NCBI RefSeq assembly: GCF_054482525.1
Contig: NZ_CM137006.1
Length of the DNA stretch: 64,000 nucleotides
Strand: one strand, 5' to 3'
The notes beneath the pieces were generated by a model. The model was given only the letters and a program-made list of their open reading frames with translations, ran no database searches and was not told the origin of the DNA. Within the stretch, counting starts at the first letter, position 1. Every line of letters begins with the position of its first letter. The position numbers were made by a program, and so were the translations under genes. Below, one piece after another: positions 16,136 through 44,166 of the stretch.

Positions 16136-16567
16136 ATATTCATCCCTGAAATGTATTAATGAAATAAACGATATTTTACGCGCAATAAATGTTTGGCGCA
16201 TTAGTTGTTTGAGCGAAAAATATCTGGAAAGCAGATCACAGTAAATAAAAAAACCTGCTGGTGAGGCAGGTTCTTTGATTTACTACTTTCAGGCCTAACA
16301 CCACGGCCTGTGCAACATCGTGTTCCAACGAACGAATTATAACCATCGGTGGACCCCGTTGCAATTAAGATAATGAGATTTATAATCCTGACTGTTGGGA
16401 CGTTGCGCCGGATCGAACCCATTTCAAGTCCTGGCTACCGGACGGGTGGTGCCGCAGGTAGTGCCCTGATCCGGAGTGCAACATCGTGGTCCAACATACG
16501 TAAACCAGTATCGACAGGCAGTGTAAGGGTAAGGTGCTGGTGTTGCGCTCCTTAATAAGGAGAGCGA

Positions 16568-16657
16568 ATGGACACGCTGACACAAAAGTTAACCGTGCTC
16601 ATTGCTGTACTGGAGCTATTAGTGGCTCTGTTACGGTTGATTGATTTGTTGAAGTAA
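16568..16657 (+). CDS. zorO: Type I toxin ZorO, 29 aa (MDTLTQKLTVLIAVLELLVALLRLIDLLK)
   Basis: Hand-translated; SD aaggagag upstream; hydrophobic helical peptide matching my recollection of ZorO from E. coli O157. Confidence 0.75.
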   Translation: MDTLTQKLTVLIAVLELLVALLRLIDLLK

Positions 16658-16680
16658 TGGGCAAATTGAAACGCAACTAA

Positions 16681-16703
16681 GGGGGAAAACCGCTTCCCCC
16701 TTT
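16681..16703 (+). terminator. Intrinsic terminator of zorO copy 1
   Basis: gggggaa-aaccgc-ttccccc hairpin followed by ttt. Confidence 0.7.
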
Positions 16704-17176
16704 AATAAAATGATTACATCTTCCATTAATTCACCCGATAACTTTTTTCATATTTATAAATTCATCGATTTTATAATCAACGTACTATTTGGCCGGGATG
16801 TGAATAATCATGGTGGGCTATTGGCGAAAAATATCTGGAAAGTAGATCGTAGAAAATAAAAGAACCTGCTGGTGAGGCAGGTTCTTTTATTTACTACTTT
16901 GATGTTAAGTTACTGATAGTGCAACATGGCATCTCAACGAACGAATTATAACCACCGCTGGACCGTGTTGCAATTAAGATAATGAGATTTATAATCCTGA
17001 CTGTTGGGAAGTTGCGCCGGATCGAACCCATTTCAAGTCCTGGCTACCGGACGGGTGGTGCCGCAGGTAGTGCTCTGATCCGGAGTGCAACATGGCGACT
17101 CAACATACGTAAACCAGTATCGACAGGCAGTGTAAGGGTAAGGTGCTGGTGTTGCGCTCCTTAATAAGGAGAGCGG

Positions 17177-17266
17177 ATGGACACGCTGACACAAAAGTTA
17201 ACCGTGCTCATTGCCGTACTGGAGCTATTAGTGGCTCTGTTACGGTTGATTGATTTGTTGAAGTAA
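17177..17266 (+). CDS. zorO: Type I toxin ZorO (second copy), 29 aa, identical peptide
   Basis: Same ORF, SD and terminator context as copy 1. Confidence 0.75.
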   Translation: MDTLTQKLTVLIAVLELLVALLRLIDLLK

Positions 17267-17289
17267 TGGGCAAATTGAAACGCAACTAA

Positions 17290-17312
17290 GGGGGAAAACC
17301 GCTTCCCCCTTT
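17290..17312 (+). terminator. Intrinsic terminator of zorO copy 2
   Basis: Same hairpin as 16681-16703. Confidence 0.7.
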
Positions 17313-17387
17313 AATAAAGTAATATTCTATTAGTTGGTTGAATATATTCTGTAGTTTACGATTAAAAATTGCTATTACAGTTTCAGG

Positions 17388-17639
17388 TTATTCACCTCGT
17401 AATTTCCGCTCATCAATACACTCATCTCTTATATAAATCAACGCATCATTTATTAGCGGGTCAACATCCTCTCGATCACGTTGATGAAATGTTGGACGTA
17501 GCCGGAACCGTTCCAGTCGGTAAACGGAACCTGTAAATAATTCAGAGCATTTATGGATCTCAAGTCTGAAGGAAAACGGATCTTCAGGTACAGGGACCTC
17601 ATAATTGTAAATAGCGACCAGCTCTTTTTGCACGCTCAT
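17388..17639 (-). CDS. Small hypothetical protein, 83 aa (position matches K-12 yehK, not confirmed)
   Basis: ORF only; no motif recognised. Confidence 0.35.
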   Translation of the reverse strand: MSVQKELVAIYNYEVPVPEDPFSFRLEIHKCSELFTGSVYRLERFRLRPTFHQRDREDVDPLINDALIYIRDECIDERKLRGE

Positions 17640-36142: not shown

Positions 36143-36224
36143 CAACCAAACGACTCGGGGTGCCCTTCTGCGTGAAGGCTGAGAAATACCCGTATCACCT
36201 GATCTGGATAATGCCAGCGTAGGG
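36143..36224 (+). repeat. attL-like direct repeat: orphan copy of the 5' 82 nt of the thiM TPP-riboswitch leader
   Basis: 82/82 identity with 44023-44104, checked by eye. Confidence 0.85.
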
Positions 36225-36307
36225 GGCCAAAATAGTCTTGAAAATTATGTGGTTGTATCTCTTTTTGACCATAAATCATGCTGTTAAGGTACAAAAAGGG
36301 GTCGTTT

Positions 36308-44022: not shown

Positions 44023-44166
44023 TATAGAGATTCAACCAAACGACTCGGGGTGCCCTTCTGCGTGAAGGCTGAGAAATACCCGTATCACCTGATCTGGATA
44101 ATGCCAGCGTAGGGAAGTCACGGACCACCAGGTCATTGCTTCTTCACGTTATGGCAGGAGCAAACT
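44023..44166 (+). promoter_or_regulatory. TPP riboswitch (thi-box) in the thiM leader
   Basis: Contains ctgagaaatacccgtatcacctgatctggataatgccagcgtagggaa immediately upstream of the thiM start codon. Confidence 0.9.

Follow-up and report, generated by a model that had tools for sequence, protein, structure and literature searches.

A predicted two-unit zor-orz type I toxin-antitoxin locus of P and Q types in Escherichia coli PCN033

Introduction

The closest described system is the zorO-orzO/zorP-orzP locus of E. coli EDL933 (PMC2887945, PMC3919570, PMC5397157), a tandem pair of units in which each toxin gene is accompanied by a divergent small RNA (sRNA) gene. The chromosomal zor-orz site is the yehL-yehK/yehI interval, the sRNAs are ~85 nt long and lie 240-300 nt upstream of the zor ORFs, and the distribution of the family in E. 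coli, Shigella, and E. fergusonii has already been published (Fozo 2010, PMC2887945). The zorO mRNA of EDL933 has a 174-nt 5' UTR, with the ribosome binding site (RBS) at +164..+169 in a stem and the EAP region at +73..+102 (PMC5397157). Overproduction of the toxin arrests growth and the cognate sRNA rescues it, with repression being partly RNase III-dependent (PMC3919570, PMC5397157). Direct experimental support is much smaller for the P and Q pairs than for the O pair. The third type, zorQ/orzQ, belongs to a survey (mSystems 2024, PMC11264685) whose own criterion for it was a BLASTn bit score >650 to a reference query, and which gives TTGCAA as the -35 of both zor and orz genes.

More distant relatives in mode of action are tisB-istR1, shoB-ohsC, and dinQ-agrB, which also have a divergent non-overlapping sRNA, short pairing far upstream of the RBS, and an mRNA that is activated by 5' processing as in zor, with tisB using a standby-site mechanism (PMC5397157). 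These systems differ from zor-orz in their unrelated toxin sequences, in their location elsewhere, in having no tandem duplication with diverged recognition sequences and, for tisB-istR1, in the SOS control of tisB.

Here, we describe a locus in the window, a 64,000-nucleotide stretch of DNA from E. coli PCN033 (contig NZ_CM137006.1; all positions refer to this stretch), which is very probably the E. coli chromosomal zor-orz type I toxin-antitoxin locus in a two-unit form, with unit 1 of zorP/orzP and unit 2 of zorQ/orzQ type, acting as in EDL933 and with the two units insulated from each other. Transcription, processing, toxicity, and repression in PCN033 are carried over by analogy from EDL933 zorO-orzO. 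The PCN033 locus shares with that of EDL933 its site, its tandem two-unit layout, and its divergent gene order. The promoter hexamers and the 29-aa toxin also agree, as do the 174-nt length of the leader and the place of the RBS within it. Moreover, the 5' end of the unit 1 sRNA is that of OrzP, and both PCN033 peptides are ZorO. It differs in that unit 1 encodes the ZorO peptide and not ZorP (T3S), and in that the sRNA of the yehK-proximal unit starts GUUGAGAUGCC... where OrzO starts GUUGGUACGAA..., with the target changed to match. Compared with the zorQ/orzQ type, unit 2 carries Ala20 (the ZorO peptide) and not Ser20. The ZorO peptide, the Rfam OrzO-P matches above gathering score, and the position in the yehL-yehI interval (PMC2887945) together uphold the original prediction, made from the letters alone, of a type I toxin-antitoxin locus.

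Two tandem units between yehL and the yehK pseudogene

The locus is composed of two tandem units of ~493 bp each, unit 1 at 16213-16705 and unit 2 at 16824-17315, which share ~92% identity at an offset of 609-611 bp, as expected of the tandem duplicate that had been proposed. A repeat search returned direct repeats of 300 nt (16310-16609 / 16919-17218, 94%, spacing 609) and 77 nt (16213-16289 / 16824-16900, 92%, spacing 611), while pairwise alignment gave 38 differences within the units, among them a 2-nt indel at 16290-16291, and showed the homology of the units stopping at ~16709/17318. Each unit has the divergent sRNA gene and promoter region in its leftmost ~180 nt. The alignment boundaries leave an AT-rich spacer of 118 nt between the units (16706..16823); its reading as a duplicated remnant of the yehK 3' end was not supported, the best local alignment reaching 75% over 36 nt (E = 0.047). 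In the PCN033 annotation, the locus is flanked by yehL on the left and by a yehK pseudogene, then yehI, on the right, and the site between yehL and yehK agrees with the published position (PMC2887945). The interval from yehL to yehI given in the original prediction is correct, with the qualification that the yehK pseudogene, not yehI, is the immediate right neighbor.

Both units encode the ZorO peptide

The toxin ORFs of unit 1 (16568..16657, + strand) and unit 2 (17177..17266, + strand), both taken from the ORF list and 29 aa long, translate to MDTLTQKLTVLIAVLELLVALLRLIDLLK, with one synonymous base separating them. This peptide matches ZorO letter for letter, as given for synthesized ZorO (PMC6669753), and is neither the T3S variant of ZorP nor the A20S variant of ZorQ. 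The same hydrophobic 29-aa peptide encoded twice, and its identity as ZorO, had both been proposed, and the comparison with the published sequence is exact.

Setting the zor +1 at 16394 reproduces the published 174-nt 5' UTR and defines a unit 1 mRNA of ~312 nt (16394..16705, + strand) that consists of the leader (16394-16567), the ORF, and the terminator; the same geometry in unit 2, with +1 at 17003, gives an mRNA at 17003..17314 (+ strand), again with a 174-nt leader, ORF, and terminator. With these start sites, the RBS AAGGAG, found 5 nt 5' of each ORF (16557..16562 in unit 1 and 17166..17171 in unit 2, both on the + strand), falls exactly at +164..+169. Its predicted unpaired probability is 0.07-0.11 in unit 1 and 0.08-0.09 in unit 2, by which both AAGGAG sites are predicted to be sequestered in a hairpin. 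Hairpin and terminator scans placed a 10-bp terminator hairpin downstream of each ORF, at 16679..16702 in unit 1 and 17288..17311 in unit 2 (both + strand), the latter lying, on the minus strand, just downstream of the yehK pseudogene. The U-tracts of these terminators are weak, and in unit 1 the + strand fails the T-run rule of the terminator scan. A Shine-Dalgarno sequence and a terminator for each copy are thus in place as originally described, and so is a leader, which extends over 174 nt only, the left ~180 nt of the unit being non-leader. Two further + strand ORFs, at 16349-16555 (68 aa) and 16982-17164 (60 aa), begin upstream of the zor +1 and are therefore untranslatable from the zor mRNA, and the longer mechanical ORFs of the minus strand across the leaders were likewise rejected as coding candidates.

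Divergent sRNA genes and their promoters

The Rfam model RF02083 (OrzO-P, gathering score 60) matched the minus strand over its full length in both units, with 91.9 bits at 16247-16322 in unit 1 and 90.2 bits at 16858-16931 in unit 2. These matches mark a ~83-nt antitoxin sRNA gene of OrzP type in unit 1 (16247..16329, - strand; 5' end GUUGGAACACGAUGUUGCAC) and a ~81-nt gene of the third (OrzQ) type in unit 2 (16858..16938, - strand; 5' end GUUGAGAUGCCAUGUUGCAC). For the unit 1 sRNA, the -10 box and the published start of pairing at sRNA nt 1 (PMC3919570) point to a +1 at 16329, and the intrinsic terminator of this sRNA (16248..16276, - strand), an 11-bp stem followed by 7 U, is supported by the terminator scan and the Rfam structure line. 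The Orz genes are located upstream of the toxin gene, without overlapping it, at 64 nt from the zor +1 (16394 and 17003) and 239-321 nt from the ATG. Both genes are outside the 174-nt leaders, which contradicts the original placement of the antitoxin on the minus strand of the leader. Other candidate matches, namely ohsC_RNA to the orz gene of unit 2 (35.4 bits, where the gathering score is 50), STnc370, ncr1015, Trp leader, and a plus-strand OrzO-P match (28.6 bits), were below their gathering scores and were set aside as terminator-hairpin similarity.

In both units, the promoter scan found a palindromic TTGCAA, reported on both strands, that provides the -35 for zor (+) and orz (-). In unit 1, this hexamer (16359..16364) is flanked by the orz -10 box TATAAT at 16336..16341 (- strand; 10/12 matches, 17-nt spacer) and the zor -10 box TATAAT at 16381..16386 (+ strand; 16-nt spacer). 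In unit 2, the common -35 at 16968..16973 has its orz and zor -10 boxes, both TATAAT, at 16945..16950 (- strand) and 16990..16995 (+ strand), respectively. Each unit would be read from back-to-back sigma-70 promoters, with the ~81-83-nt Orz transcribed leftward and the ~312-nt zor mRNA rightward. GUUGG stands at the start of both the zor and the orz transcript, whose 5' ends pair with one and the same leader segment (+74/+83..+102). A speculative reading, to which we assign a low probability, is that the palindromic -35 prevents RNA polymerase from occupying both promoters at once and that Orz is a trans-acting copy of the 5' self-silencer of the mRNA that arose long ago by inverted duplication of sequence around the -35. 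If this were true, synthesis of toxin and antitoxin would be coupled at initiation besides post-transcriptionally.

Assignment of the units to locus types

The recognition sequences distinguish both units from the O type. The OrzO V1 triplet GAA at sRNA nt 9-11 is absent from unit 1, where V1 is ACG as in the OrzP sequence, and from unit 2, where GCC at the V1 position marks a third recognition sequence matching the zorQ/orzQ type. The first 20 sRNA nt of unit 1 and their target are identical to those of the yehL-proximal unit of O157:H7, and the whole-unit identity of unit 1 is 94.3-98.3% to P-type units, compared with ~91% for Q and ~87% for O. Units of other strains encoding ZorQ A20S, found with unit 2 edited to the A20S codon, served as the Q-type comparison set; unit 2 is 98.5-99.0% identical to these Q-type units over its whole length and has the same sRNA 5' end and the same 20-nt pairing site (+83..+102). 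Recognition sequence and whole-unit identity both assign unit 1 to the zorP/orzP sequence type, and unit 2 is assigned to the zorQ/orzQ sequence type by its recognition sequence and its identity to the ZorQ-A20S-encoding units. The orz allele of unit 2 was present in 855 of 5426 complete genomes. A zorO-orzO pair in the strict sense, that of the EDL933 z3289 unit and the one first suggested, is not what the locus contains, given the ACG and GCC recognition sequences in place of GAA and the whole-unit identity of only 86.6-88.3% between units 1 and 2 and the O-type units.

The K-12 orphan and a possible wider role of the sRNAs

E. coli K-12 MG1655 retains the orphan antitoxin OrzPmg (PMC11264685) in the same place beside yehL, with a unit 1-like sRNA 5' region and the same promoters, whereas the toxin ORF and the pairing site are absent and only a short leader stub is left. 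The claim that the locus is absent from K-12 therefore applies to the toxin, while an expressed orphan orzP persists (PMC11264685; K-12 sequence). This orphan raises the question of whether Orz sRNAs, and above all the OrzP-type sRNA of unit 1, have further targets in trans besides zor, toxin control being only one part of the function of the locus. Such a role would fit the conservation and expression of orzP without toxin in ~30% of E. coli genomes, K-12 included (PMC11264685), as well as the occurrence of P-type orz in 4683 of 5426 complete genomes when a zor ORF-containing sequence was present in only ~3397. However, the literature reports no trans target, and retention of the orphan may be neutral, since decay is safe only if the toxin is lost before the antitoxin (PMC11264685); overall, we consider the trans role unlikely.

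Proposed mode of action and leader folding

Work on EDL933 has established a course of events that is expected here by analogy. The full-length zor mRNA would be poorly translated, its RBS locked in a hairpin and its first ~22 nt paired with +74..+102. Removal of the first 28 nt would raise translation by exposing the EAP region, which is probably a ribosome standby site. Pairing of the Orz 5' end with +83..+102 would then block standby loading and trigger RNase III cleavage, so that the toxin would normally not be made. If produced, the toxin would be expected to insert into the inner membrane, leading to depolarization and the draining of ATP.

Thermodynamic folding was partly consistent with this scheme. 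Pairing of +1..+22 with +74..+102 was predicted for unit 1, for both O157 leaders, and for unit 2 when the leader was folded alone, in agreement with published probing data (PMC5397157). In the minimum-energy fold of full-length unit 2, the helix between the 5' end and the EAP region was not found, and the ensemble has an expectation of only 8.4 base pairs for it. Truncation by 28 nt gave no clear rise in predicted EAP accessibility, the unpaired probability changing from 0.31 to 0.37 in unit 1 and from 0.38 to 0.26 in unit 2. Listing base pairs directly was more informative on the EAP region than unpaired probabilities.

Pairing and unit specificity

The pairing segment of the unit 1 sRNA, nt 1-20 (16310..16329, - strand), pairs in register with leader +83..+102 (16476..16495, + strand), the 3' part of the EAP/standby region (EAP per PMC5397157), and the corresponding segments of unit 2 from the pairing calculation are 16919..16938 (- strand) for the sRNA and 17085..17104 (+ strand; +83..+102) for its target. 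The unit 1 cognate duplex has the form 6(1)13, i.e., 19 bp with one internal mismatch (-34.0 kcal/mol), and the unit 2 cognate duplex with +82..+102 has the form 6(1)14, i.e., 20 bp including one G-U, also with one internal mismatch (-34.4 kcal/mol). In both, sRNA nt 1 is opposite +102, and the mismatch is at sRNA position 7, facing +96. The non-cognate duplexes, by comparison, contain 4-5 in-register mismatches, with longest runs of 9-10 bp, and reach -21.3 and -22.6 kcal/mol. Judged against the published thresholds for repression, a minimum of 15 bp where pairing is continuous or of 17 bp where it is interrupted by one mismatch (PMC3919570, PMC11264685), both cognate pairs suffice and the non-cognate pairs fall short; the rule was derived with OrzO mutants, and the repression strength of the P and Q pairs is here assumed from it.

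The divergence between the units is concentrated where the sRNAs pair. The original observation that the copies differ in the leader corresponds to 8 substitutions, 5 of which fall within the 20 nt targeted by the sRNA (P = 5.5e-4, hypergeometric), and identity between units is 75% in the two pairing patches versus 97.6-100% in the remaining mRNA. Four compensatory double changes between the units preserve pairing, which implies selection on pairing. Given the energies of about -34 kcal/mol for cognate against -21 to -23 kcal/mol for non-cognate duplexes, the units are predicted to be insulated, with the same toxin, different pairing sequences, and each sRNA silencing its own mRNA only. This is in line with the earlier suggestion of a possible one-to-one specificity between antitoxins and toxins, and with the EDL933 experiments (PMC3919570).

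The possibility that either Orz represses both zor mRNAs, which would turn the duplication into redundancy or dosage and not two independent switches, was weighed against this prediction. The toxins of both units are identical, and the non-cognate duplexes still attain -21 to -23 kcal/mol because both units have in common the first 4 nt (GUUG) of the pairing segment and the 9-10 nt towards its 3' side (AUGUUGCAC); counting three G-U, the unit 2 sRNA pairs at 18 of 21 positions of the unit 1 target. Nevertheless, the non-cognate mismatches, three even if G-U is counted, and the short runs stay under the published thresholds, and OrzP of EDL933 did not repress zorO despite 15 nt of complementarity (PMC3919570). 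The four compensatory double changes would also be hard to account for without selection for unit-specific pairing. We regard cross-repression as quite unlikely, and insulated units remain the preferred reading.

Activity and significance of the locus

A separate concern is that the locus may be an inert relic in PCN033, with an intact sequence whose expression never reaches a relevant level. The adjoining yehK is already a pseudogene, a single chromosomal copy of zorO-orzO was without a kanamycin phenotype, and ZorO from its native promoter was undetectable (PMC9860968). On the other hand, all elements are intact in both units, conservation across 2439 loci is at least 99% for the promoters, the RBS, the length of the ORF, and the potential for pairing (PMC11264685), and the compensatory changes imply selection on pairing, which makes a relic improbable.

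Many type I systems, such as Sib/Ibs and Hok/Sok, use a cis-antisense sRNA. For zor-orz, a cis-antisense sRNA with long pairing opposite each leader, the model of the original prediction, can be dismissed as highly improbable, since nothing at the locus favors it, the only minus-strand promoter-like sites (16341-16336 and 16950-16945) are directed away from the leader, and the Rfam OrzO-P matches are upstream of the zor +1.

With a two-unit zor-orz toxin-antitoxin locus as the best account, the locus is real but ordinary, and its biology was already published between 2010 and 2024, including the tandem layout with its divergently transcribed sRNAs, a recognition region by which cross-talk is prevented, the division into three locus types, and the antitoxin that K-12 has kept without a toxin. 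Its main importance is one of annotation: RefSeq annotates 0 of the 4 genes in PCN033 and also leaves them unannotated in one O157:H7 strain and in K-12, such that a well-studied toxin-antitoxin locus is overlooked when the raw RefSeq annotation is used alone. Moreover, strain PCN033 presents a tidy natural case of one toxin with two RNA pairing sequences and four compensatory changes, and its units could serve studies of how sRNA-target specificity evolves.

A tandem zor-orz locus in E. coli PCN033

Over 16140-17400 the window is 100% identical to the chromosome of E. coli PCN033. This segment contains direct repeats of 300 nt (16310-16609 and 16919-17218, 94%, spacing 609) and 77 nt (16213-16289 and 16824-16900, 92%, spacing 611), which are parts of one duplicated unit. 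The alignment of 16213-16720 with 16824-17330 revealed 38 differences within the units, a 2-nt indel among them, and homology stopping at about 16709/17318. Each unit carries a 29-aa toxin ORF on the plus strand (16568-16657 in unit 1, 17177-17266 in unit 2) with AAGGAG on its 5′ side and a 10-bp hairpin on its 3′ side, and the two ORFs are a single synonymous base apart and encode the same peptide. Together, the repeats, alignment and ORFs confirm, far beyond chance, the tandem duplication described in the original prediction. Its placement between yehL and yehI held for yehL on the left and yehI on the right, but a yehK pseudogene intervenes and adjoins the units. This pseudogene (PGAP feature 17286-17639, minus strand) has a premature TGA at codon 84 (17388-17390), a Ser codon in K-12, and its feature reaches into the terminator hairpin of unit 2 zor (17288-17311). 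Read on the minus strand, this hairpin comes shortly after yehK and could terminate both unit 2 zor and yehK.

The identification of the peptide as the ZorO toxin was borne out, as MDTLTQKLTVLIAVLELLVALLRLIDLLK of both units agrees in every residue with the ZorO that Otsuka and colleagues synthesized (PMC6669753). In each unit, a minus-strand match (16247-16322, 91.9 bits; 16858-16931, 90.2 bits) spans the whole of the curated OrzO-P antitoxin model of Rfam (RF02083, gathering score 60), and the units occupy the chromosomal site at which Fozo et al. found z3289/z3290 of EDL933 in 2010 (PMC2887945). The family assignment is correct: PCN033 has a genuine zor-orz type I toxin-antitoxin locus that is intact and combines a P with a Q unit. 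The zor ORFs and orz sRNAs are without RefSeq/PGAP annotation in PCN033 (window 16247-17314), an O157:H7 strain (L002) and a K-12 strain (L003). The OhsC model (RF02495) also gave a sub-threshold match on unit 2 orz (16854-16938, minus strand; 35.4 bits against a gathering score of 50, E = 0.005), which may reflect a common terminator architecture or a distant kinship between the shoB-ohsC and zor-orz sRNAs.

Divergent promoters and the shared -35 hexamer

The promoter scan revealed a promoter-like pair on each strand of each unit, in which a palindromic TTGCAA (16359-16364 in unit 1, 16968-16973 in unit 2) serves as the -35 for both zor (plus) and orz (minus), with TATAAT spaced 16 nt rightward for zor and 17 nt leftward for orz. 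Setting the zor +1 at 16394/17003 yields the published leader of 174 nt and places AAGGAG exactly at +164..+169, in agreement with PMC5397157. The orz +1 was inferred from the -10 box (16329 in unit 1, 16938 in unit 2), and the predicted sRNAs of 83 nt (unit 1) and 81 nt (unit 2) end in a strong terminator. This placement is supported because O157:H7 OrzO, with its +1 placed likewise, has its first 18 nt paired without a break, counting one G-U pair, which is the length reported by Wen et al. (PMC3919570). Given the promoter layout and the orz +1, the sRNA gene is divergent and upstream of the zor leader rather than antisense to it as originally proposed, as with the ~85-nt sRNAs lying 240-300 nt upstream of the ORFs in Fozo et al. 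2010 (PMC2887945); looking for the absence of an antisense sRNA from the leaders as a refutation was therefore misplaced.

Since each biological point was published in 2010, 2013, 2016 or 2024, the biology of this locus is already known. The only loose thread is the shared palindromic -35, a feature on which the 2024 survey is silent in its main text (PMC11264685), along with the GUUGG with which both zor and orz transcripts begin in each unit and the single leader segment that both RNA 5′ ends target. One TTGCAA acting as -35 for both genes raises the possibility of promoter competition.

Unit types and pairing specificity

The naming of both units as zorO-orzO had left their types undistinguished, whereas the sRNA 5′ ends place them as P and Q. 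A set of 23 units, taken from the window plus 12 further strains, showed three sRNA 5′ ends: type P (GUUGGAACACGAUGUUGCAC, V1 at nt 9-11 ACG, orz allele in 4683 of 5426 complete genomes), type O (GUUGGUACGAAAUGUUGCAC, V1 GAA, 1262/5426) and a third type (GUUGAGAUGCCAUGUUGCAC, V1 GCC, 855/5426), ACG and GAA being the OrzP and OrzO sequences in the V1 naming of Wen et al. (PMC3919570). By sequence, unit 1 is of the P type (94.3-98.3% whole-unit identity with others of that type) and unit 2 of the third type (98.5-99.0% identity with third-type units of other strains). Because the third-type units of strains 120899, RM10042 and 2014C-3307 encode the A20S peptide, unit 2 was assigned to the zorQ/orzQ type, as judged through these units rather than the survey authors' reference query. 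Both window units nevertheless encode ZorO despite their P and Q types; ZorO is the dominant product in the 2024 survey, at 72.5% of zor ORFs (PMC11264685). Strain 2014C-3307 carries three tandem units, P, Q and Q (L014 1670-3350), both Q units encoding ZorQ (A20S), and copy numbers of up to four are reported in the survey (PMC11264685).

Differences between the window units are unevenly spread: identity is 75% in both the 20-nt sRNA 5′ pairing segment and its 20-nt leader target, 30% in the first sRNA stem-loop, 97.6-98.6% in the leader outside the target, 98.9% in the toxin ORF and 100% in the zor 3′ UTR and terminator, and the target holds 5 of the 8 leader differences (P = 5.5e-4, hypergeometric). 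At sRNA nt 5, 6, 9 and 11 both partners changed with Watson-Crick pairing kept, at nt 8 a pair turned into G-U, and nt 7 is an internal mismatch common to both units. Cognate duplexes comprise 19 bp at -34.0 kcal/mol (unit 1) and 20 bp at -34.4 kcal/mol (unit 2) with one mismatch each. The non-cognate duplexes between the two window units show 4-5 mismatches in register, run for 9-10 bp at the longest and reach -21.3 and -22.6 kcal/mol. The experimentally derived rule (PMC3919570, PMC11264685) asks for 15 bp in a row or for 17 bp around a single internal mismatch. Both cognate duplexes pass it and neither non-cognate one does, which lends computational support to the idea that each antitoxin is specific to its own toxin. 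This agrees with EDL933, in which zorO escapes repression by OrzP (PMC3919570), and recognition-region variability preventing cross-talk was already proposed in the 2024 survey (PMC11264685).

Leader folding and repression

In the EDL933 system, zorO overproduction is toxic and is rescued by OrzO, whose repression is Hfq-independent and partly RNase III-dependent (PMC3919570). The full-length zorO leader hinders translation, loss of 28 nt opens the EAP region (+73..+102), a likely standby site, and OrzO binds the 3′ part of this region and can block translation (PMC5397157); ZorO itself acts in the inner membrane through depolarisation and ATP depletion (PMC9860968, PMC6669753). Folding predicted the RBS to be paired in both window units (unpaired probability 0.07-0.11) and zor mRNA +1..+22 to pair with +74..+102, the segment also targeted by the Orz 5′ end, in unit 1 (16394-16415 with 16467-16495, plus strand), both O157 leaders and, in the same register, the leader-only fold of unit 2. 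Such pairing would explain EAP exposure after 28-nt processing, although the full-length minimum-energy fold of unit 2 departs from this pattern and a clean EAP opening after truncation was not seen in averaged accessibilities. By analogy, the EDL933 zorO-orzO mechanism would carry over to the PCN033 P and Q alleles.

The K-12 orphan and other observations

The locus had been described as absent from K-12. This is right in that no toxin ORF was found at the site in K-12 strain PG20180058, but an intact P-type orz, the promoters of both genes and a short stub of the zor leader are kept (L003 2085-2290); this orz is the published OrzPmg, a northern-confirmed orphan antitoxin in K-12 (PMC11264685). 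A 4.83-Mb record labelled 'DH5alpha' (NZ_CM135829.1) contains a complete two-unit P+Q locus, and as genuine K-12 derivatives have the orphan orz only, its label looks doubtful. Elsewhere in the window, two TPP riboswitch matches lie ~8 kb apart on the plus strand (36146-36241, 61.3 bits; 44036-44132, 71.2 bits), both exceeding the Rfam gathering score.
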